Assembly (NCBI GenBank): GCA_030295235.1
Contig: AP026158.1
Span: 124,001-188,000, forward strand
DNA from: Fistulifera solaris
Lineage: Eukaryota
DNA: 64,000 nucleotides
Direction: 5' to 3'
The notes beneath the pieces were generated by a model that saw only the letters and a list, made by a program, of their open reading frames with translations, had not been told where the DNA came from and ran no database searches. This document shows positions 21,904 through 35,337 of this stretch, piece by piece. The translations under genes and the position numbers were made by a program. Positions within the stretch are counted from its first letter, which is position 1. Every line of letters starts with the position of its first letter.

Positions 21904-22826
21904 AGTGTGAAGGGTGCAGGAATAAATGGAATGGGGCAGTGCGGTGTTTGCTCGGAAAAGGAACAAACTAGATCTTGTGTGCATGAAAAATGCCTATCTA
22001 GTCGGTTCACAACTTCTTTTGGTGAGGGGTGCTAAGGTGCGTTTTGATTCCGGGCACCCATTTGATCCAAAAGACGACAGGAATTTCCTCCGATTCACGC
22101 GTACGCTTGAGTCAAAATAGGAGCAACTTCTTGATTGATTCGAAGAACGTATAGAACCGAATACAGCTACGGCTATTATGTCAACAGAGAGAACCGAGAG
22201 TTGTTCGGGTTGTCCCTTCGCATCAGCTAACCTTGTCACGCTTCAGATTGTAGTATATCGGAGAAATGTTATTACAACTAATGTACCTCTCGCCTCAAAA
22301 TGAATCGATACTTATTTTTCGTTCCAATCATACATCAGCATGTCGCATTCCCGCAAAAAATCCAGACCTCATGACTCATGACTGAATACCAAGACTTTCG
22401 GGCTACGTTGTGAAAATTGGACGTGGTCGATCTGTGAAGATAATCGACACCAATGCTATCGGTGCTTTATCGCATATTCATTCATCATTGAAACACCAAA
22501 GGTAACACGATCCATCACATCGTTCATTCGAGAAACGATTAACGTTTGATTTCCAGTCTTGTCTAAAACAGACTACACTTCAGGACTATAGTGAAATCTG
22601 ACGTCAAAGTCGTCGGCACTCGGCACAAAACTTGGCAACAAAAATCGCGAGGTGCAAAAAGTGGAGAATCAATAGAAGCATGTTTGATTCATAAAGATAC
22701 TTATGCATCTATCCTGTTTCCGGACCTGGCGCTCTTTGTGAACCTAAGAAAGATTTTCTCTTCGATTTGAAGAAAACCCAAACAAAAACATTGTCACACA
22801 CACAGAGAGACGTGTCGTCCGATGAC

Positions 22827-23661
22827 ATGACATCGGAATCATCATCTAGCTTTCAGGAAGTTGCTGCGTCATGGGAATTGAGTGACGTCGAACAAAAAGA
22901 ACTTGTTGATTTGCAACAACGGCTGCACGATGTTTTACACTGTCCTCTCACCCGATGGCGCGATTTAGTGCGTTTTTTACGAGCCCGTCCGGGAAATGTG
23001 ACAGCTGCCGAAACCATGTTTCGTCAAATGGTCCAGTGGCGGACCGTCCACCAAGTCGATACTATCTTGTCAACGTACACTCCACCCCCCGGAAATGGTA
23101 CGCTATTATCCCGGTGCTTTGTTGGAAGGTTTTGATCGGGAGGGTGATCCAATCTTTGTGTCTCGTTTGGGTGTCACCGATGGTGTAGGCTTGCTGCAAC
23201 GTTACGGAAAAGACGAAATGATTCGACACGCGATTTGGATACGAGAATTAGTGGTACAGAAAGTGAAAGAAGTCGAAGAGAAACGGGGACGTCCCGTACG
23301 GAGAATTTGTCTGGTAGAAGATTTGCACGGCTTGAGCTTGAAAACGCACGGCCAGCGTGCTCTGGTCTCCGTGTATGGAGAAATCATGCGACTCGATCAA
23401 GACAATTATCCCGAAACCGCAAAAAAGTTACTAATCGTCCGTGCCCCTACTTTGTTTCGTATGATTTGGTCCATGGCCCGGCACTTTTTCGATCCTGGAG
23501 TCGTAAGGAAAATGGTGTTTTGTGGTGTCAGTGATTACCGAACTGTACTGGATCAGTATGTGGAGTTAGAGGTTTTACCCGAAGAAATTGTGTCGGGGGT
23601 AGGGCATGGTAAAGCTGTGGTAGGTATGCCATCCAATTTTTCGGGAGGTCGACTGCCATGA
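22827..23661 (+). CDS. CRAL-TRIO / Sec14-like lipid-binding protein; frameshift at C7 run ~23084-23090
   Basis: LVRFLRAR...A..MF....WR, GFDREGDPI, DLHGL, QDNYPET, IVRAPTLF...W..FFDP. Confidence 0.9.
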
Positions 23662-24260
23662 TATAGAGAGAATGAATGAATAGAGTAGAAGTGGGCGTGA
23701 GAAGTTGGGAATAGGGATAACGTTACCGGTGGAGCTATCGTTTCTTTCTTCTTGTTGTAGGTTTCATCAATTCGTCGAGCGCGGAACGCCATCTTGCCCA
23801 GGCCAAGGTTCAGAAAAAAAAAGTGCGAAAAGGCCAGATGAATTGTAGCAGTCTCCGAAAGATCCATTCTTGGATCTTAAAAGAATACTAGAAATGAGTT
23901 ATATCAAAGTCTATTGATTTGTATCTTCAACATTACTTAGACTATGGTCGCTCATTGATTCGTTTCGCCGTGGGTGTACAGATTATAGATACGAAAATGG
24001 CGTATGCTGTTTTCACCTTTTCAGAAAATCTGGGCGTTTGCTGTTTGCACATACCCAGAAAATCTGAAAATGTTTACCGGTGCGTTGTAGGTGCAAGAAG
24101 TGCGCGCGATGGATGATTGATGGCAAAATCTTTGTTTATTGTCATGATGGCATTCATTATTCTATCCGTCTTTATTCTCACACATCCTATTATCTATTTC
24201 GAAAAAGTCGATCGATTACGTGCTACGATAATATTCATTAACAAATAATAGAATGCACAC

Positions 24261-27200
24261 ATGACCGGAAGGACAGCCTTTTATACCTCTCTGTGGATAT
24301 CTTCTTTGCTTTCTTGGCCATTGGTGGCGTTTACTACCCCTCGCCCTCCTTGCCAGCCACGTACGACACCAACGTCCATGGCCCCCAATTTCATCGAAAG
24401 TATCCGCCAAACTCTTTTCGGAACCGAGAAAGAGATTCTTCTAAAAGACTTTCCGGTGCCGGATTCGGAAGCGGTACGACGAACACTTTCTCTCATCGCC
24501 GTCCATCCGCAACCAAAAGAGAACCAGAAAACAAAGAAGAACAATATCTTCCTCAAAAACATACAACAATGGTGGAACCAACAGTTACCCGCACGCGATG
24601 TCATTTTGCAAAAGATGTGGAAATTCTCAGTGCGGAGGAATACCTTTCCTTACGTCGGGAATTGCGACCCGATTTTCAAATTCCGAGCAACAATCCACCC
24701 ATCACTGTCGATGTCGAAGAAGAAGCTATCCAACAAGCAGAGATAAACCAGGATGTAATTCGACCAAAATCGGATTCCACACCATCTACCAATTTCGATT
24801 CATTCACCAAGGATCCACCACAGGTGATTCTCACGGAAACCGTTCCACAGACGACTCCAGCTATTGGGAATATGGATGCATTTCGTCCGCAAAACGATCC
24901 TACGACTGTACGTCCGATCTCCTTAGCGACAATTCTGGAAACACAATCGAATCAGCCCGGAAGGTCAACGTCACAGACGTCGTACTTGCAATCGTTGGAG
25001 GTTGCCGTATCTCGTCCGGAGGGAACTTCGCGACAGTTTACCTATTTGGAAAGTCTAGATGCATCCTTGGGCAGCCGCGTCTCTCAGGTACCACGTCGAC
25101 AAGTGTTGTTGGAAGAACCGTGGGTCACTGTCAGTGAATCAAGCAATTTAGACGGGGCAATGATGAAAGAGGAGTCGCTTGAAACGCTTCAAGTCTCATT
25201 TGTTGAGTTACCAAAGCCATCCGTTCCATCGGAAGTAACGACACGGACATCGCGGTCGTACTTGGAATCTTTGGATGTTGCCGTATCTCGTCCGGAGGGA
25301 ACTTTGCGACAATTGTCGTATTTAGAAGGCTTGGATGATTTGGATGCATCGGAATCTTTTGCCGGCCGCATGTCTCAAATTCCTCGTCAACAAGAGGCGG
25401 TGATTAAAGCAATGTCGACCCAACAGGGTTGGGGGACCAGAAAGGAGACCAAATGTTTGCTCGAAGAACCACGGGTCACTTCGAGTGATTCAAACTATTT
25501 GGACGGGGCAATGTTGAGAGAGGAGTCGCTGGAATCGCTTCCACCAGAAAAAGTACAAGAAAGTGTGCAATACTCACTGCCACGAGAGGTCGAAGAATTA
25601 TATGATGCTATCAATACTAACACTGATAATGATATCCGAAACCAACTCGATCAAGGCGGCACATCTGAGTTGACGCAGGACGATACACTCGCAGAAATAG
25701 ACCCAATTGCCTATGGAGTTTCAACACAGCAAGAATCGCTGTTCGCGATGGGCGAATCTGCCGCCGATTCTTACTATTCACAAAGCTCAACAATCAGCAC
25801 GGAAGAAACTGCCGCCAATGAATCCCGTTTCGGTTATCAAACAGAGTCTGCCAATCCAAATATACCACGAAGAGCATCTTTCTCGCCCGTTCGGTCAACT
25901 GTAAAAGACTACAACTCAACCAGTTCCAGCCCGTATCTCGCGTCGCTAAGAGGATTGAAAAACCGTCCATTCCAGTATGAAAAGGAACCAATTACTGATA
26001 CATGGAAGTCTAAGAAATCGTTTGAAGCGACAACTATCGGATCATTTTCACCCGTTCGTGCTTCTATCAAGAATGTAAATTCCACAAGCTCCAGTCCATA
26101 TCTTGATACTTTACGTGGGCAAGTAATTGCGCCATTCGATTTCAAAGCAGCAACGTTTGCTGCATCAGCGAAAAGATGAATCCGTAACGCCCAATAAAGA
26201 TGCCACTCCGCTGGCGGCTGTCACTCCGAATCAATCTGCAACACAAGAATCATTTGCGGATGACAAGTTGTGGTCAGCGCAACCCACAAAAGCTTCCTTC
26301 GCCCCCGTACGCCCAGGAGTTAAAAACGTCGATGCTACAAGTTCTAGTCTCTATCTCACTGCTTTGCGAGAAACAACGACACCACAGCCTCGCATGAAAT
26401 CAATAAAACCGAAAGTGACAGTCAATACGCAAGCAAATCTGTTACCAACTGTAGGATTAAAAGACGAGAATAAACGACCTCGACCCATGGGTGCATCCTT
26501 TTCGCCAGTGCGGTCTTCAATTAAAAAGATGAACTCAAAAAGTTCCAGTCCGTATCTCGACGCACTGAAAGGACGGACAATGAAGTCCTTCGAAGCGATG
26601 CCTGTCACTCCGCTCCCTGCAAATACCATATCAAAGTCCCCAACGCGTCCTCCCGGTGCTTCCTTCTCGCCTGTTCGCTCGACAATAAAGAATGTTGACT
26701 CGACCGGTTCCAGTCCGTATCTTGCCACGCTCAAAGGACGAACAATGGCATCATTCGAATCCTTGTATGGTGCCAACCCAACTTCGGACGAACCATTCAT
26801 GTCATCGGCAACAGAGACAGAACCATCTCGACCCATGGGTGCATCCTTTTGCCAGTGCGGTCTTCAATTAAAAAGATGAACTCAAAAGTTCCAGTCCGTA
26901 TCTCGACGCACTGAAAGGACGGACAATGAAGTCCTTCGAAGCGATGCCTGTCACTCCGCTCCCTGCAAATACCATATCAAAGTCCCCAACGCGTCCTCCC
27001 GGTGCTTCCTTCTCGCCTGTTCGCTCGACAGTAAAGAATGTTGACTCGACCGGTTCCAGTCCGTATCTTGCCACGCTCAAAGGACGAACAATGGCATCAT
27101 TCGAATCCTTGTATGGTGCCAACCCAACTTCGGACGAACCATTCATGTCATCGGCAACAGAGACAGAACCATCTCGACCCATGGGTGCATCCTTTTCGCC

Positions 27201-30200
27201 AGTGCGGTCTTCAATTAAAAAGATGAACTCAAAAAGTTCCAGTCCGTATCTCGACGCACTGAAAGGACGGACAATGAAGTCCTTCGAAGCGATGCCTGTC
27301 ACTCCGCTCCCTGCAAATACCATATCAAAGTCCCCAACGCGTCCTCCCGGTGCTTCCTTCTCGCCTGTTCGCTCGACAATAAAGAATGTTGACTCGACCG
27401 GTTCCAGTCCGTATCTTGCCACGCTCAAAGGACGAACAATTGCATCATTCGAATCCTTGTATGGTGCCAACCCAACTTCGGACGAACCATTCATGTCATC
27501 GGCAACAGAGACAGAACCAGCTCGACCCATGGGTGCATCCTTTTGCCAGTGCGGTCTTCAATTAAAAAGATGAACTCAAAAAGTTCCAGTCCGTATCTCG
27601 ACGCACTGAAAGGACGGACAATGAAGTCCTTCGAAGCGATGCCTGTCACTCCGCTCTCTGCAAATACCATATCAAAGTCCCCAACGCGTCCTCCCGGTGC
27701 TTCCTTCTCGCCTGTTCGCTCGACAATAAAGAATGTTGACTCGACCGGTTCCAGTCCGTATCTTGCCACGCTCAAAGGACGAACAATTGCATCATTCGAA
27801 TCCTTGTATGGTGCCAACCCAACTTCGGACGAACCATTCATGTCATCGGCAACAGAGACAGAACCAGCTCGACCCATGGGTGCATCCTTTTCGCCAGTGC
27901 GGTCTTCAATTAAAAAGATGAACTCAAAAAGTTCCAGTCCGTATCTCGACGCACTGAAAGGACGGACAATGAAGTCCTTCGAAGCGATGCCTGTCACTCC
28001 GCTCTCTGCAAATACCATATCAAAGTCCCTAACACGTCCTCCCGGTGCTTCCTTCTCGCCTGTTCGCTCGACAATAAAGAATGTTGACTCGACCGGTTCC
28101 AGTCCGTATCTTGCCACGCTCAAAGGACGAACAATTGCATCATTCGAATCCTTGTATGGTGCCAACCCAACTTCGGACGAACCATTCATGTCATCGGCAA
28201 CAGAGACAGAACCAGCTCGACCCATGGGTGCATCCTTTTCGCCAGTGCGGTCTTCAATTAAAAAGATGAACTCAAAAGTTCCAGTCCGTATCTCGACGCA
28301 CTGAAAGGACGGACAATGAAGTCCTTCGAAGCGATGCCTGTCACTCCGCTCTCTGCAAATACCATATCAAAGTCCCTAACGCGTCCTCCCGGTGCTTCCT
28401 TCTCGCCTGTTCGCTCGACAATAAAGAATGTTGACTCGACCGGTTCCAGTCCGTATCTTGCCACGCTCAAAGGACGAACAATGGCATCATTCGAATCCTT
28501 GTATGGTGCCAACCCAACTTCGGACGAACCATTCATGTCATCGGCAACAGAGACAGAACCAGCTCGACCCATGGGTGCATCCTTTTCGCCAGTGCGGTCT
28601 TCAATTAAAAGATGAACTCAAAAGTTCCAGTCCGTTTCTCGACGCACTGAAAGGACGGTCAATGAAGTCCTTCGAAGCGATGCCTGTCACTCCGCTCCCT
28701 GCAAATACCATATCAAAGTCCCCAACGCGTCCTCCCGGTGCTTCCTTCTCGCCTGTTCGCTCGACAATAAAGAATGTTGACTCGACCGGTTCCAGTCCGT
28801 ATCTTGCCACGCTCAAAGGACGAACAATGGCATCATTCGAATCCTTGTATGGTGCCAACCCAACTTCGGACGAACCATTCATGTCATCGGCAACAGAGAC
28901 AGAACCAGCTCGACCCATGGGTGCATCCTTTTCGCCAGTGCGGTCTTCAATTAAAAGATGAACTCAAAAGTTCCAGTCCGTATCTCGACGCACTGAAAGG
29001 ACGGACAATGAAGTCCTTCGAAGCGATGCCTGTCACTCCGCTCTCTGCAAATACCATATCAAAGTCCCTAACACGTCCTCCCGGTGCTTCCTTCTCGCCT
29101 GTTCGCTCGACAATAAAGAATGTTGACTCGACCGGTTCCAGTCCGTATCTTGCCACGCTCAAAGGACGAACAATGGCATCATTCGAATCCTTGTATGGTG
29201 CCAACCCAACTTCGGACGAACCATTCATGTCATCGGCAACAGAGACAGAACCATCTCGACCCATGGGTGCATCCTTTTCGCCAGTGCGGTCTTCAATTAA
29301 AAAGATGAACTCAAAAGTTCCAGTCCGTATCTCGACGCACTGAAAGGACGGACAATGAAGTCCTTCGAAGCGATGCCTGTCACTCCGCTCCCTGCAAATA
29401 CCATATCAAAGACCCCAACTCGTCCTCCCGGTGCTTCCTTCTTTTCTGTTTGTTCCAGCCCATATTTCGATGGGCTTAACGGTATTTCAACGAAATCATT
29501 TGAAGCGATGCCTGTCACTTCGGTTCCTGTAGATGCAGCAACAACAACAACACCAGCAAAAGCCATACATTCCCTTGCTTCCTTCTCCTCAGTCCATTCC
29601 TCGATGAAAAAATTTGATTCGACCGGTACTACTCCCTTCCTTGATGCGGTGAAGGGGCTTACCATGCCATCCGTCGGTCGTGAAGGATCATCTGTTTCAC
29701 TATCACGCCAAACAATCAACACGTCTCAACAGTCGGCTGATTTGCACAAGTACAGCTCAAATTCTGAAAAACAAGAACTTCGCAGTACAGATCAATCATC
29801 TACAATCAATGAGACTAGCAAACCCTGTTCTGTGGTTTTGACGAACCTGTCAGGCAATCGCCCCACACCAGAGAGTGAGGATTTCCGCGGGTTGTCCAGT
29901 TTAGAATATAAGGAGAATAATCAACCCGCTTCCCAGGACTTGAAAATTTGGCTAAATGAAGCTCGCAAGCACGCACCATTGCTTCAAGCAGGTCCTGATA
30001 AACCCGATTTGAAAAATAGAGTTCCAATGATGTCGTCGCCTATAGCGGGTCCGTACCTCGACAAGCTTACCTCGTCACCTCGTCAGGAATCACCCAAGCC
30101 ACAGGGTAGCTCTAAGGTTCACAAAACGAGCCGATGGTTGCCTAGAAACGGTGGAGGCCCCGACGCAGCTGACTTGAAACATAAAGTACTGATGTCTTCA

Positions 30201-30242
30201 TCTTCATCGAACCCTTACTTGGATAGCTTACAGCAAGACTGA
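24261..30242 (+). CDS. Giant (~2000 aa) plastid-targeted Ser/Pro/Thr-rich repeat protein with multiple apparent frameshifts
   Basis: Signal peptide ending LVA-F plus transit-like TTPRPP...; successive ORFs (24261, 24293, 26127, 26926, 27543, 28316, 28428, 28774, 29355) share the same motifs and switch frame at or beside homopolymers. Confidence 0.7.
24981..25533 (+). repeat. Dispersed internal duplication (~70-90 aa) in the giant protein
   Basis: SYL.SL.VAVSRPEGT.RQ..YLE.LD...LLEEP.VT.S.S..LDGAM..EESLE occurs twice (~24981 and ~25256). Confidence 0.85.
26481..29441 (+). repeat. 348-bp (116-aa) coding tandem array, 8 full copies plus a partial copy
   Basis: CGACCCATGGGTGCATCC starts at 26481, 26829, 27175, 27523, 27870, 28218, 28565, 28911 and 29257; copies are near identical. 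Confidence 0.97.
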
Positions 30243-30340
30243 ATGTGACCGACGAAGGCTACAATAGGGTTGTTAAAACGACCACTTTGTGGAACGATCA
30301 TGTACCAAAGGAAAGTCGAACTATTTCGCCACAAGTTACT

Positions 30341-33300
30341 CTAGTCTATGGCTTCTGTTTCGTAAGCATTTGTTTTGTATACTCCCATATCGTGATTGCA
30401 CCGGTGACGTGGACGTTCAGACTGCGAATTATACCGAACTGCGGTATTTCGACACATTCGTCCACAGCGTGGAGGTATTGAATTGGAATGCCTTCTTTTC
30501 CTTGCCAAGTAGAAGGACTGTCGGTCGATCGGGAAAGGAAAAATTGGATAGTTGGACGCTCGTTGAAGTCTGTTCAATGCCAAGAATGAAAAATCCTTCT
30601 TCTCGTTTCTTCGTCAACCATTTTAGTAGATTCTGTCAATGTTCACGTGCAAAATAAAATTAGACTGTGACACGATAGAATCGCGAGAAGACATACATAT
30701 CAACAAAAGACATCTCATTGTTTAATCGATATCCATCAAATGGCAATCGGAACAGATCTTGGTAATTTATAAAATAATCACGGATGTTGGGACAATAGCA
30801 GCAAAGAATACCTTTGACTCACCTTCTCTTTACATTCTTCGACGGTAATCCAGTCTCCAGCTCCAACACTAATACTCTTAAAATTATCCATTTTCGCAAC
30901 TTTCTTGTCAGGGATGACTAGGGAATCTACCCCAAATATTTCCGACGTTCGAGCTAATCCTCCTAGATTGGGCACTTTATCGATGAGACTAGCGCACACA
31001 ATCAAGTTTTGTTTCGTACGGCCGGCAGCTGTTCGAAGCCGGCGTTCAGCAAAGCTTTCGAGAGCCAAATTCAACGCGTCCAAAGGAATAATTTTCCGCT
31101 GAAAATTCACGGCGTCACAGACAGCGGTAGCGCTATTTTGCAAATCAATTGGTTCGTCTTCTTTTTCCTGCAATAGCTTCCATGTCGGCGCGTCACCGCC
31201 ACGAGACTCCTCATAAACCATTTGAAGCCCCTCTTTGATAACTTCAACTAAATGATTGGGAAAAGCTTCACCGCCTTCATCCACGGGAATGTCCAATATA
31301 CCTCTGACAGTGCATACTTCATTGACATGGTATTGGTTGAAAAAATCAACCTGCTTGGACCGTAAACGCTTCATTTCGGCGTTCTCATCCAAATGTTTGT
31401 ATATGGTCCTGAGATACCAAATGTTGTCAAAATTGTCTTCCACGCAAGTCACGTCAATTCTAAGCGGAATTAATTCGTAAACAAGTAACTGAGCAATTGC
31501 CCGGCTGAACCCTTGAGTGCTGCTGAGCCATGGTATGACCCCTGAAATGAGTGAATCCAACGTATTACTCGTGGAATCTGATGTTATAGCAGGCAAAAAC
31601 TCTACCTTGTGCCTTCCAACAACCAAGTTACCAGTAATTATCATAAATGAAGAAATCGTTTGCAGAGATAGAGCATGCCTTGTAATGTTGCTCACCAAAG
31701 AGTCTACGAAAAGCTGAGGGAAACGTCTCGCGCATTGAATGGCCAGAATTTCTATGAAGTACCGGATTTGTCCGTGAAGTGTCTCTTCAAGAGCCTCAAA
31801 GATACGATCACGCACAACTTCCACAAGAGACGGCGTCAAAAACTTAGATAGAACACATAATGCCTGCCATCCCCTCATCTTTGTGCAATATTCGGGACTG
31901 CCAATCATCACCATACTTGTAGTTTTCTTTGATCCTTTCTTCGCAGAAGGGCGCACTGCATCAAGCAATCGTATGACCAAGGGACTGATTAATGAAGTTG
32001 CCACATTCTCGGGTAGCTCTTGGTTTTCAGTCAACTCCGCAAAGAATGTAAGAAGGATCCCTCTGGTGACACTCTGATCGTGAGCAGTCACCGGAAGTCC
32101 AATACCCGTTTCTCCGGGAAATAACGGATTTTTCGTCGTATGAGATACAGCATCTTCTACAGCATCGTCTTTTTGTAAAAGCAGCTTTTCGAGATCATCC
32201 AAGTAAGGAATAGCAGCAAGCCCTTGGTTTCTTGCACTTTCTGTCCTCAGCCAGCCAACGACCGCGTAGGCCAACACAGTCCTGCTTATGAAAGACTTTT
32301 TTGTACCAGCCATTTCAATTAATTCACGAAACGTTGAGCGGATAGGGGTGGCAGTATTTTTGTTGTCCAGCAGCCTGGTGTACTCGTCCAGCATTAAATC
32401 AGATCTGAAAACAAGACGGCAAATTCCATCCAACATTTGTAGACTTTCTTTAGCAGTCTTGCATTCAGCCGTGACTTTAAGGAGAGTCTTAATCACCGAG
32501 CTCAAGCAATTTATATGCTGCTCTCCACCTTTACCGATAGTCAAAAGATATTTGCCGGCAGGAATAACACAGTCGAAAAGAAGGGTGATTGCCTCAGCAG
32601 GAGTGGCTTCAATGTCTTCGGCGGCAACAGAGAATAGTTTCTCCGAGGCGATTCGACGCTCGTCGTCATTCGTCGAAGCAGAGGCAAGGATAGAAAACAA
32701 GCACGACAAAGCACCCCACCGTGCAAAGTGAAACAAAGACCTGCAAGCTTGCTTGTCGTCTCTCGAAGGTATTCTGATTGGATTGAAATCCATTACAAGC
32801 AAAGCGTTCACTGCAGAAAGAGCTTGGGGTGTGTTTATTTCTACTCCGGCTAATAGGGCCCCATACAAAAGACAAAGCCCTTGCAATGTTTTCACGTCGG
32901 CCTTTCTGACGCCGACCAGAAGAGGCAAGTTTTTGTCAGCTATTGACGCGTTACCGCTCGAGAGAGCCATGCTGGACGGAAACGCTTTATGAATTATGCG
33001 AAATTGACGAATCAGCCCCGAGTAGGTCTGGGAAAGAATCCGTGCATTCCCTGACCGAAAGCTTCCTTCTCGGGTAACATCCTGGCCATCCTGCGCTATA
33101 AGCCCAATAATGTGGTGGTGAATAAAGTCAAAACCATTGGTGAGAACGCGCTCAACATTTGAAGGGGGTGGCATCATTTGATTGGCAGAGTCGACAACCA
33201 AGTCTCCGTTTCCCATTCCTGAAAGCAATTGTGCTTGACAGCCATATTCTAGCAACAGTAAAGCTCGAGCGACTCTATCAGCCATTGACCACGACGGAGT

Positions 33301-35337
33301 TGCTATTGCGACAGGTGCGTGGTTTATTCCTTTGTTAATGGCTGGCCATAACAGCTCACTTGATGTACTAGTTGATTCAGTTGCAGCCGAGGTTGCCAGA
33401 AAGCAAAATGAGACGGCCGCTTTAGCAGTCACTTTGTCCAAAGCCGAAGTACCAATCTTCGGATTCCATGATTCCTGTTGTGTTGACGAAAGAAGCATTC
33501 CATCTACAAAAGCCGTTGCAATAGGACCACCGGCACCAGCAGCCCATCCAGGTTTCTCTGAATTCAATCCTGTTTGAATCCATTCTCTCAATGCCGTATT
33601 ATCTTCGTCAACGAGAGGATAGAGACCAAGTACCGCTAAAATACTTTGAGGTGAAAGTGCTTGTTCCGCGACGGTATGATGCAGCACAACCGCGAAGTTT
33701 TCTAAGAGAGAGTCTTTGTACTTTTGCGCCACTGATCCCGAAGAGAACAGACTCTCAAAAGCAGTCGCAACATTCACCAAAACTTGTTGCTCAACAGGAA
33801 ACTTGACACCGCTCTTCGCCATGGCCGACGCCGAACATTCCAACAACTGAACTACCGTCTTGTGGTGCATCTGACACACCACCGCGTTGGACAATAGTCG
33901 CGACAGGAATTGTCCGCGAACTTTAGAATTGTCTAGCGTCAAAATGTATTCGTACAAAAAGTCGTGCATCATCTCCGCCATATCTTCGGCAGAATTCTTC
34001 TTTTGCCATCCTCTTCCATGTGCATAGTAAGACCTACCGAATCTGATAAAGAATCGTAAGACTGAAGGATAACATCAAATAGAAAGTCCGGATTAATACT
34101 GGCCAAAGGCGCACCCTTTTGTGGCGCCTGTCGGATGATCCCGCTTCACCGCGAAACAACCGGTACAAGGTGAGTTTGCGGACGACGGGTAAATCCGGCG
34201 AGACCAGAATGCGGGCCAACAAAAGAAACGTCCAACGAAACGAAACGCCGGGGGCATAGCCTTGTATGCCTCATTGTGACTCGCTTCCGCGAACAATTCT
34301 TGCACCGAACCCCAAATCTGATCCATTAAATGCGGTTCTTGTTCCATTTCCGCCGTTTCGAAGCATGCTACATACTTGTACCACGATTTATGGGAATGTT
34401 GCTCTTCCATGACACGCAGTAAATACAATCCCCGTCGTCGCAACAATTGCGAGTGCGATTCTTGTAGTGTCGTTTCCGCAGCGGCCTTACGTCGTAGGCC
34501 CGTATGTTTCATCGGCGTGACGTTTTGACAACCTTGTTGTAAGCATTGATAAATGAGTTCCCATACTTTGGCTTGTGTCCAAAGCGATGTACCCTCTTGT
34601 TGTGAGAGGAGGACCGGAAATAGTATACAAAGAACCGACGTGATCACCAAGAGTGATCGCGGAGATGAATCGGCCTCGTACAGCTCCCACATCAACTGTT
34701 CTACCGGTTCGCAATTCTTCGGCAACAATAAAGGAAGTAAGGAATGAATGATGGGACCCATCAAGGCCGCTCGTTCGGTATCATCGGTCACTCGGACGGC
34801 CTGTTGGACACCTCCCTTCAAGAGATCGAGACCCATGGTAGGACGTTGGAGTCGTTGCACCACGAGACACAGATTCTTCCATGGCTGATGAGAGTCTTGG
34901 ATCCGAATCGTTTCGTCGGTTTGCGTAATTTGCGGGGGCAAGGGAATCGTCTCGTCGTGTGCAACAACAACAACAACATCGAGTAACGCATCCAGTAATT
35001 CGTAAGATTCCTTCCAGCAAACCGACAAGATCATCGAGAAAGCATTGTTTTGACTGTTATGGTGTTGATGCCAAAAGACGAGTAACAGGAACAATTTGTG
35101 CGAATGAGTGTTCGTTTTCTTTCGGTTATTCCAAATGGAATTCACCCAGGAGCGATCTTCTTCATCAAAACCTTCAAAAAACGACACAATGTTGGTCGTC
35201 GTCGTCGTCGTCACGACTTTATTGTGTGACGACGACGAAACCTGCAACAAACATTGCAAGGCCGGAACGAGGGCTTTGAGTGACAGACTCTGCAACAGCG
35301 GTTCCACGGATTGAAAAAGTGATTGCAATTTCGTCAT
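30341..35337 (-). CDS. TRM3: tRNA Gm18 2'-O-methyltransferase (TRM3/TARBP1, SpoU family); intron 30633-30822; several frameshifts
   Basis: [50 protein letters not shown]; long helical N-terminal region as in TARBP1. Confidence 0.85.

Follow-up and report, generated by a model that had tools for sequence, protein, structure and literature searches.

The question raised by the stretch of Fistulifera solaris DNA analyzed here (contig AP026158.1 of GenBank assembly GCA_030295235.1, forward-strand positions 124,001 to 188,000) is whether the interval 24261-30242 on its plus strand, in which the coding sequence is scattered across three reading frames, holds a working gene, and what the product of such a gene would do. 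The whole stretch of 64,000 nucleotides (nt) is called the window, and all positions are counted from its first letter. The interval is one intron-less gene with a single exon, FisN_33Lh001, and the gene for a protein of roughly 2000 residues is real. The locus is a functional nuclear gene of a pennate diatom, which looks broken only through single-base insertion or deletion (indel) errors of the assembly. Its product is built around a recurrent 24-residue motif, and we hold, with a little more belief than doubt, that it is a scaffold of the plastid offering many copies of that motif, the plastid location, the binding and the partner all being predictions.

The frame that opens at 24252 has its first ATG at 24261, and the stop codon is found at 30240-30242. 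When the interval was read through with an X set at each of the 11 frame breaks, 1985 residues and no stops were obtained, the corrected gene amounting to ~1990 codons, and the expected repeat motif resumed after every break. The deposited protein GAX23114.1 ("hypothetical protein FisN_33Lh001, partial" from F. solaris, P0004 in our searches) equals this read-through at 737 of 739 positions, the remaining two being X marks. The deposited model is unannotated and breaks off where the tandem array begins (...GLKDENKR), and its continuation into the array and the C-terminal ~1250 residues is visible in the window alone. In addition, an intact ortholog of 1487 residues, P0001 (E 1.3e-191, 61% identity over the N-terminal part), could be aligned from Met1 to the last residue. 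The limits 24261-30242 (+) thus follow from the open reading frames (ORFs), the X-marked read-through, the identity with GAX23114.1 and the alignment with P0001, and the last two secure the view of the first-pass annotation that we are dealing with one real gene.

That annotation had also allowed for translation ending at 24746 or 26179, and the frame breaks had to be judged one by one. There are 11 of them, all single-base indels, two outside the array and nine inside it; 11 breaks in 6 kb of the window could be taken as the mark of a decaying pseudogene, or of a gene encoding only its first 161-628 residues. The two upstream breaks part the ATG frame from a long frame at 24242-26176, and the latter from a frame at 26127-26876. 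At the first of them (24610-24613, plus strand) the window has a run of four A where there should be five, giving a false stop at 24744-24746; in X1, the contigs of a public 2015 run, an additional A is present behind 24609 (depth 11.5 of 11.5), and GAX23114.1 reads ...DVILQKDVEIL... across the site. At the second (26171-26174, plus strand) a run of four A should be three, and the false stop is at 26177-26179; the X1 contig is without one base at 26171 (depth 35.1 of 48.1), and GAX23114.1 continues as ...AASAKDESVTPNK... These two changes are precisely those that join the three frames. Both stops are assembly errors through which X1 and GAX23114.1 read without interruption, and the two breaks that could be checked are in this way absent from both sources. 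Since X1 and GAX23114.1 possibly stem from the same data they were counted as one line of evidence, which is independent of the present assembly. A 2753-nt X1 contig extends beyond the gene into the intergenic DNA upstream, and for this reason X1 cannot be used as evidence of expression.

The nine breaks in the array, at about 26851, 26885, 27545, 28274, 28607, 28620, 28953, 28966 and 29312, are without independent contig cover, a point in favor of the pseudogene. They are all 1-nt gaps confined to three recurrent sites, namely the C of TTTTCGCC (two gaps), the A5 run of TTAAAAAGATG (two) and the A5 run of CTCAAAAAGTT (five); seven of the nine are A5 to A4 changes, and not one insertion, multi-base event or stop is found among them, which speaks against decay. 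The unit alignment gave lengths of 348, 346, 348, 347, 348, 347, 346 and 346 nt for units 1 to 8; the three units of 348 nt are in frame, and every other unit is short by one or two bases. Array bins devoid of X1 cover coincide with the gap sites of the window and were not used as evidence, and X2 provided one 295-nt contig with two differences inside the array, too little to interpret.

The neighboring conserved genes share the same defect. The CRAL/TRIO gene at 22767-23661 (+), which is Sec14-like (Pfam E 6.1e-29), shifts frame within the C6 run 23085-23090, ...STYTPPP being followed by EMVRYYPGALLEGFD one frame on; the shift probably stems from a single-base assembly error and not from an intron. 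Downstream, a TARBP1-like SpoU methylase gene is found at 30778-33981 (-) with its 3' part at 30346-30635 (-), beyond a probable short intron; its SpoU domain is divided over two frames at an A run near 30495-30505, one frame covering profile positions 63-109 and the other 105-141, which is again a sign of homopolymer indels in the assembly. Furthermore, X1 contains the 3' end of a second copy of our gene (window 29975-30269) that is ~94% identical, with 19 of 295 nt differing. The differences are biased to third codon positions (13 of 19), again contrary to decay, and correspond to 9 synonymous and 8 non-synonymous codons, and the amino-acid variants are those of the protein fragment P0006. 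A homeologous copy would fit these findings, the genome of F. solaris being described as allodiploid in abstracts. Because X1 and GAX23114.1 contradict two of the breaks, the array gaps recur at three sites, the neighbors are broken as well and the orthologs are intact, we conclude that the frameshifts are assembly errors, with high confidence for the nine breaks in the array, and that the organism itself carries an intact gene; that the frameshifts are real is hardly credible.

With the frame restored, the repetitive part of the protein could be described. Tandem Repeats Finder placed the array at 26479-29442 (+) and scored it 5724, with 8.5 copies of period 346 and 98% matches, and the unit alignment shows the unit to be 348 nt or 116 amino acids (aa). 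As noticed at first pass, the unit has two related halves: it consists of two modules, one of an A type (...SSIKKMNSKSSSPYLDAL) and one of a B type (...STIKNVDSTGSSPYLATL). In the whole protein there are 22 starts of the form SF[SAFX][PST]V, and 21 of these are paired with [YF][LF]xx[LIVF], the unpaired one being shortened by an internal deletion in unit 9. The recurrence of the pair every ~55-60 aa was likewise seen correctly, the module spacing alternating between 55 and 61 in the array and covering 52-101 over all 21 paired modules (values of 52-54 are artefacts of the X marks), and with 22 modules at 55-61 aa the protein does have the high valency ascribed to it. The strict motif YLxxL occurs 25 times, where 1000 shuffled sequences gave 0.23 on average and never more than 2; the earlier count of more than 25 is reached only when the variants PFLDAL, PYFDGL and PFLDAV are included. 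Eight strict copies are situated outside the array (shuffle mean 0.17), where such copies had been pointed out before.

Two parts of the first-pass description had to be corrected. FSP and YLxxL had been treated as independent motifs, and they turn out to belong together, as the opposite ends of a single conserved module of 24 residues, at a fixed distance of 19. The analogy between FSP and the WSP of a known Rubisco linker rests on ~3 residues, and neither Ser-Pro of the window module is kept in the wider family, where relatives read SYAPTKP or SFAPTKP. All modules of P0001 (11/11), P0002 (11/11), P0003 (17/17) and P0007 (5/5) have S[FY] and YL at a distance of 19, and those of P0005 and P0011 mostly show 19 or 22. 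Among 65 unique modules with distance 19, the residues S, F/Y, P, K, S, Y, L and L carry 3-4.2 bits of information each, and the value drops to ~1 bit outside positions -19 to +4. The family consensus can be written S-[FY]-[AS]-P-[TV]-[KR]-x-x-[VI]-K-N-x-x-S-x-S-S-x-x-Y-L-x-x-L, and the window form S-F-S-P-V-R-x-x-I-K-x-x-x-S-x-S-S-S-P-Y-L-x-x-L, often with another S-F ~12 residues later. It is clear from this pattern of conservation that the module is a selected unit, and that the conserved element is a precise motif and not a compositional repeat. Nothing relevant was found for the motif strings SYAPTKP, SFSPVR, SFAPTK and SSSPYL in the literature searched, from which the identifiers FisN_33Lh001, 33Lh001 and GAX23114 are absent too; the FisN_33Lh001 identifier is also not in one supplement of PMC5935921, which uses identifiers of the type fso:gNNNN. 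Judged by this literature the 24-residue motif is previously undescribed.

Relatives were obtained with a profile made from eight window modules and run against 1.84 billion representative proteins (E<=0.001). The search gave nine matches, seven of which carry the module (GAX23114.1 and six others), while P0008 and P0009 have 0 modules each and were rejected from the family as spurious matches. By pattern, P0002 has 11 modules (16 matched stretches in the profile search), P0003 with the form SYAPTKPGVKNLSSTSSGAYLDDLKG has 17, P0005 with the form SFAPT.P.VK..S..S..QAGGYL..LK.AV.GLSSFA has 18, and P0007 with the form RSYAPTKPSVKN.SSTSSGSYLD.L has 5; P0006 is a C-terminal fragment carrying the module. 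The modules are spaced by 55-75 aa in most members. Searching with the N-terminal part for longer proteins returned only P0001, and searching with residues 430-1900 of P0005 returned only P0005 itself and P0011. A search with the family alignment was ineffective, returning its own first row only and missing known members, and low-complexity words crowded the searches; protein searches of this kind do not allow the family to be called absent from P. tricornutum or T. pseudonana. Scans of metagenome contigs with a single unit and with P0001 gave no confirmed locus.

The comparison with P0001 is informative about the history of the array. Because the unit number differs between the orthologs, being 8.5 in the window and ~3 in P0001, and the units are near-identical within each species, the sequences point to rapid gain, loss and homogenization of array units. 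The module is moreover found in several architectures. A soluble giant form is represented by the window protein, P0001 and P0002; P0005 and P0011 have weakly hydrophobic segments near the N-terminus, and their C-terminal parts match helical, coiled-coil-like Pfam families, mostly below the cut-offs; P0007 has a strongly hydrophobic segment at 132-156. No Pfam family could be named for the relatives: NPV_P10 scored 35.1 bits on P0011 (cut-off 29.8) and SasG_E 33.1 on P0003 (cut-off 25), in both cases with no single passing stretch. As a separate observation, P0005 (2147 residues) and P0011 (2225 residues) have a second recurrent motif, APKMTTVPMG, before every other module and a conserved C-terminal region, and they form a distinct sub-family that may be membrane-anchored.

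What surrounds the modules in the window protein is a chain rich in S (16.2%), P (9.9%), T (9.2%) and K (5.7%) with an overall isoelectric point (pI) of 9.29, in which two parts of opposite charge can be distinguished. Residues 1-560 are acidic (pI 4.60, net charge -28). They include the most conserved N-terminal region, residues ~41-142 at 24381-24685 (+), with long runs identical to P0001 (MAPNFIESIRQ...ILLKDFPVPDSEAVRRTLSLIAVHP...DVEILSAEEYLSLRRELRPDFQIP), and at 24965-25549 (+) two internal repeats of ~90 aa, recognized in the translation, each carrying SYL(Q/E)SL...(T/S)YLE(S/G)L...(SNLDG/NYLDG)AM; P0001 has one copy only. Residues 560-1800 are basic (pI 9.96, net +55; S 17.7%, P 11.1%, T 9.9%), and only 2 Trp are found in the 1240 residues of this module region. 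Three diverged modules precede the array at 25877-26372 (+), starting at 25877, 26042 and 26295 (SFSPVRSTVKDYNSTSSSPYLASL, SFSPVRASIKNVNSTSSSPYLDTL and SFAPVRPGVKNVDATSSSLYLTAL), all conserved in P0001. After the array the unit 9 alignment and the pattern count identify two degenerate modules at 29436-29657 (+), SFFSVCSSPYFDGL with the internal deletion and SFSSVHSSMKKFDSTGTTPFLDAV. The C-terminal ~100 residues (29934-30239, +) are conserved in P0001, P0002 and P0006, comprise the two half-modules GPDKPDLKNRVPMMSSPIAGPYLDKL and GGGPDAADLKHKVLMSSSSSNPYLDSLQQD and end in ...SSSSSNPYLDSLQQD; the protein end is 3 residues past YLDSL, and P0007 similarly ends in ...GGYLDDL.

The absence of a recognizable folded domain and the disorder of the chain, both suggested by the first reading of the sequence, were borne out. 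Pfam gave no family above cutoff in any of the four window segments scanned. AlphaFold2 predicts disorder throughout, with a mean predicted local distance difference test score (pLDDT) of 32.9 and 0 residues at 70 or above for the 739 aa of GAX23114.1 (a 2-row alignment), and a mean of 44.3 and again none at 70 or above for 242 array aa with four modules (a shallow 9-row alignment). In the N-terminal part short helices of low confidence are placed at 42-52, 70-77, 95-108 and 125-135. The ESM Atlas model of GAX23114.1 has a pLDDT of 0.38 and yielded no usable feature match, all structure rows having a template modeling score (TM) below 0.4.

The N-terminus is central for the question of where such a protein would go. 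It reads MTGRTAFYTSLWISSLLSWPLVA followed by FTTPRPP, and residues 1-23 (24261-24329, +) are signal-peptide-like, with an AlphaFold2 helix at 5-17; the putative signal peptide ends in LVA and has a Phe at +1 (24330-24332), as had been proposed. The same A-F junction is present in three of three complete family N-termini, namely LVA-FTTP in the window, VVA-FAPR in P0001 and TQA-FLLP in the distant P0005, and P0011, a truncated model, retains GFLLP; the position of cleavage was judged by eye. In the 20 residues that follow the junction, which in the window are the transit-peptide-like stretch FTTPRPPCQPRTTPTSMAPN at 24330-24389 (+), the D/E, K/R and S/T counts are 0/2/6 in the window (the two basic residues being Arg), 0/3/5 in P0001 and 0/2/8 in P0005. 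In diatoms, a signal peptide with Phe at +1 and a transit peptide behind it lead to plastid import (the ASAFAP / ASAFind rule). Because the A-F junction and the acid-free hydroxylated stretch fit this rule, import into the plastid stroma is predicted, and we regard it as quite probable.

A signal peptide is equally what a secreted or cell-surface protein would have, of a mucin-like, adhesive or frustule-associated kind, and the Phe behind it would then be coincidental. For such a product speak the very long disordered tandem-repeat sequence rich in S, P and T, with a repeat number that varies between species, and the fact that F. solaris is a raphid pennate diatom, a group known for secreting such material. 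A coincidence would, on the other hand, have to account for a junction and an acid-free hydroxylated stretch that are kept in all three complete N-termini, the distant P0005 included. Silaffins, cingulins, frustulins and trail proteins are characterized by lysine clusters (KxxK, pentalysine) or by Cys-rich or other named domains. The window protein has 5 KxxK in 1985 aa and at most 4 Lys per 11 residues, so no silaffin-like or cingulin-like lysine clusters, and 4 Cys; of the Pfam domains known from diatom wall or adhesion proteins none turned up in the window segments or the relatives, and the element under conservation is a precise motif of 24 residues and not a repeat of composition. We consider secretion distinctly improbable.

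Returning to the plastid scaffold, the following course of events is the one we favor. The signal peptide would bring the protein into the endoplasmic reticulum, and the Phe at +1 together with the transit-peptide-like stretch would carry it on into the plastid stroma, where the mature protein would remain disordered. Each of the ~22 motif copies would dock on a single site of a partner that is oligomeric or lattice-like, probably folding as it binds, and the spacers of 30-40 residues would let neighboring motifs reach different partner molecules, by which the partner would be coated or held together by cross-links. An attraction between the acidic N-terminal half of one molecule and the basic motif array of another is conceivable as well. 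A long, predictedly disordered chain with a precise motif, variable spacers and a changing copy number is the signature of a multivalent scaffold, which is the reason for our preference.

Several observations weigh against this preference. The array model has a 4-residue helix at 134-137, on YLDA, as its sole element, and no confident structure is seen at the motifs. The h-region of the signal is only moderately hydrophobic, no 19-residue window reaching a Kyte-Doolittle value of 1.5. Secreted proteins rich in S, T and P are common in raphid diatoms. That the module-bearing clusters form a diatom family is something we infer. Finally, the X1 unitigs over the array are patchy, and independent reads offer no direct contradiction of its nine breaks.

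Our leading guess for the partner is Rubisco or its shell, and a role in the pyrenoid is accordingly put forward as a tentative one. In its fullest form the proposal is that the protein would be a Rubisco-condensing linker or a tether of pyrenoid matrix and shell in F. solaris, i.e. a functional analog of EPYC1, CsLinker or PYCO1; this we find plausible but rather unlikely, and the evidence divides as follows. The FLIPPer search for Rubisco linkers uses a repeat spacing of 20-120 residues (PMC11570498), and of the three features it looks for the present protein shows two, disorder and a repeat spacing, here 55-61. As against this, in the account given of Chlorella only 1 of 13 proteins with such generic features was a linker (PMC11570498). 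The array is basic, its pI of 9.96 being close to the 10.03 given for PYCO1 (PMC10288592). The authors of the work on PYCO1 searched by BLAST and met with no homolog in other sequenced algae (PMC10288592), and PYCO1 is elsewhere called not widely conserved and absent in centric diatoms (10.1101/2023.10.26.564148), so other diatoms need something else; no other diatom linker was found in the literature searched. It is also described that PYCO1 does not act on form IC Rubisco (PMC13655443). F. solaris is among the species with Shell proteins according to a figure legend, and a motif present both in soluble relatives and in others that are possibly anchored in a membrane is reminiscent of the Rubisco-binding motif that proteins of Chlamydomonas share (10.1101/2023.10.26.564148). 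As the motifs of SUPA1 from Ulva are described to fold only on binding, the absence of an AlphaFold2 helix at our motif is not fatal.

Other observations speak against a linker. KWSP, WSP, GTGYNP and GYNP each have 0 copies in the 1985-aa read-through, and so has the Chlamydomonas-type pattern W[RK]xx[LIVA]. The module profile gave 26 matches among Protein Data Bank (PDB) chains at E<=10, all to nanobodies, antibodies or FBXW24 and none to a linker chain, in a PDB copy for which the presence of a PYCO1 chain of 20 or more residues was not verified; they were rejected as a chance likeness of ...SSPYLDALKGR... to the nanobody stretch ...YADSVKGRF... (E 0.04-1.9). GAX23114.1 had 0 matches among the PDB chains. 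No repeating structured element is predicted, and the protein is 3-6 times longer than known linkers, with a large acidic N-terminal half and half of its length non-repeat. Further, the tagging study of T. pseudonana is reported to have found no pyrenoid protein with a ~60-aa repeat (10.1101/2023.10.26.564148), and one would be expected there if the family were general; presence of the family in that species is not shown. Going one step further, the 24-residue module might be a pyrenoid-targeting motif binding Rubisco or PyShell in diatoms lacking PYCO1, the giant soluble form (window gene, P0001 and P0002) being the matrix linker and P0005, P0011 and P0007 tethers between matrix, thylakoid and shell. 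We offer this as a speculation, and an unlikely one. If true, it would be an independently evolved red-lineage counterpart of the logic of the Chlamydomonas Rubisco-binding motif, with a valency tuned by gain and loss of tandem units (3 vs 8.5 units between close species). The hexamer TGACGT is a low-CO2 cis-element from work on P. tricornutum; its 36 sites in the window, none of them at 23000-24700, are uninformative.

Two minor features of the locus can be mentioned here. On the minus strand at 26351-29722 there are seven ORFs of 104-244 aa (MGRAGSVSVADD...), which were rejected as genes: they are confined to the repeat and share its indels, they have no matches among the relatives, all of which match the plus-strand frame, and they are best seen as by-products of a stop-poor antisense frame. 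The presumed promoter contains a direct repeat of 34 nt (GCGTATGCTGTTTGCACATACCCAGAAAATCTGG), with two copies of 81% identity at 24000-24066 (+), which is ~200 nt before the ATG.

What is new in this analysis is a corrected full-length model of a gene that public annotation truncates at the repeat array, together with a sharply defined motif of 24 residues, suited to searches of algal proteomes, that occurs in several architectures with a quickly evolving copy number. The frequent single-base indels in coding sequence call for caution in users of this assembly. Diatom pyrenoids are stated to fix roughly a fifth of global CO2 (10.1101/2023.10.26.564148), PYCO1 is the only diatom Rubisco linker in the literature searched, and the present candidate sits in a diatom described as transformable and genome-editable (PMC13276009). 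Should the protein prove pyrenoidal, it would represent a new sticker chemistry for red-type Rubisco; if not, it would still be an unusually large disordered plastid scaffold.

Among known systems, the protein resembles the sticker-spacer linkers in its predicted architecture and is not a member of any known linker family. The closest comparison is PYCO1 (Phatr3_J49957) of Phaeodactylum tricornutum, which is described as a plastid-targeted, mostly disordered and basic pennate-diatom protein with tandem repeats (PMC10288592, PMC13655443), plastid targeting being predicted in our case. Both have short conserved motifs with aromatic residues between spacers, and both have an aromatic-Ser-Pro-basic element, F-S-P-V-R here and K-W-S-P-R in PYCO1. 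They differ in that PYCO1 has 6 repeats of ~80 aa in ~590 residues, compared with 22 modules in ~1985 residues here, and in that our protein adds an acidic N-terminal part of 560 residues (pI 4.6). There is no detectable sequence similarity between the two and no KWSP or GTGYNP in our protein, and binding to Rubisco has been shown for PYCO1 and is hypothetical for our protein. With the class of EPYC1, CsLinker and SUPA1, as described, it shares a disordered, basic and repetitive chain with a spacing of ~60 residues, and the motifs of SUPA1, folding only on binding, would fit a motif that AlphaFold2 leaves unstructured here. In contrast to this class it shows no homology and no predicted helical sticker, its valency is ~4 times higher, and unlike for the green-lineage linkers the partner Rubisco would be of the red type (form ID). 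Compared by description, AaPPAP28 of the chlorarachniophyte Amorphochlora amoebiformis is likewise a large protein with many short repeats in the middle of the polypeptide and is pyrenoid-associated (PMC13655443), an association that is hypothetical in our case; it has 90 repeats of 5 residues placed 2-23 apart, whereas the F. solaris protein has 22 modules of 24 residues, 55-61 apart.

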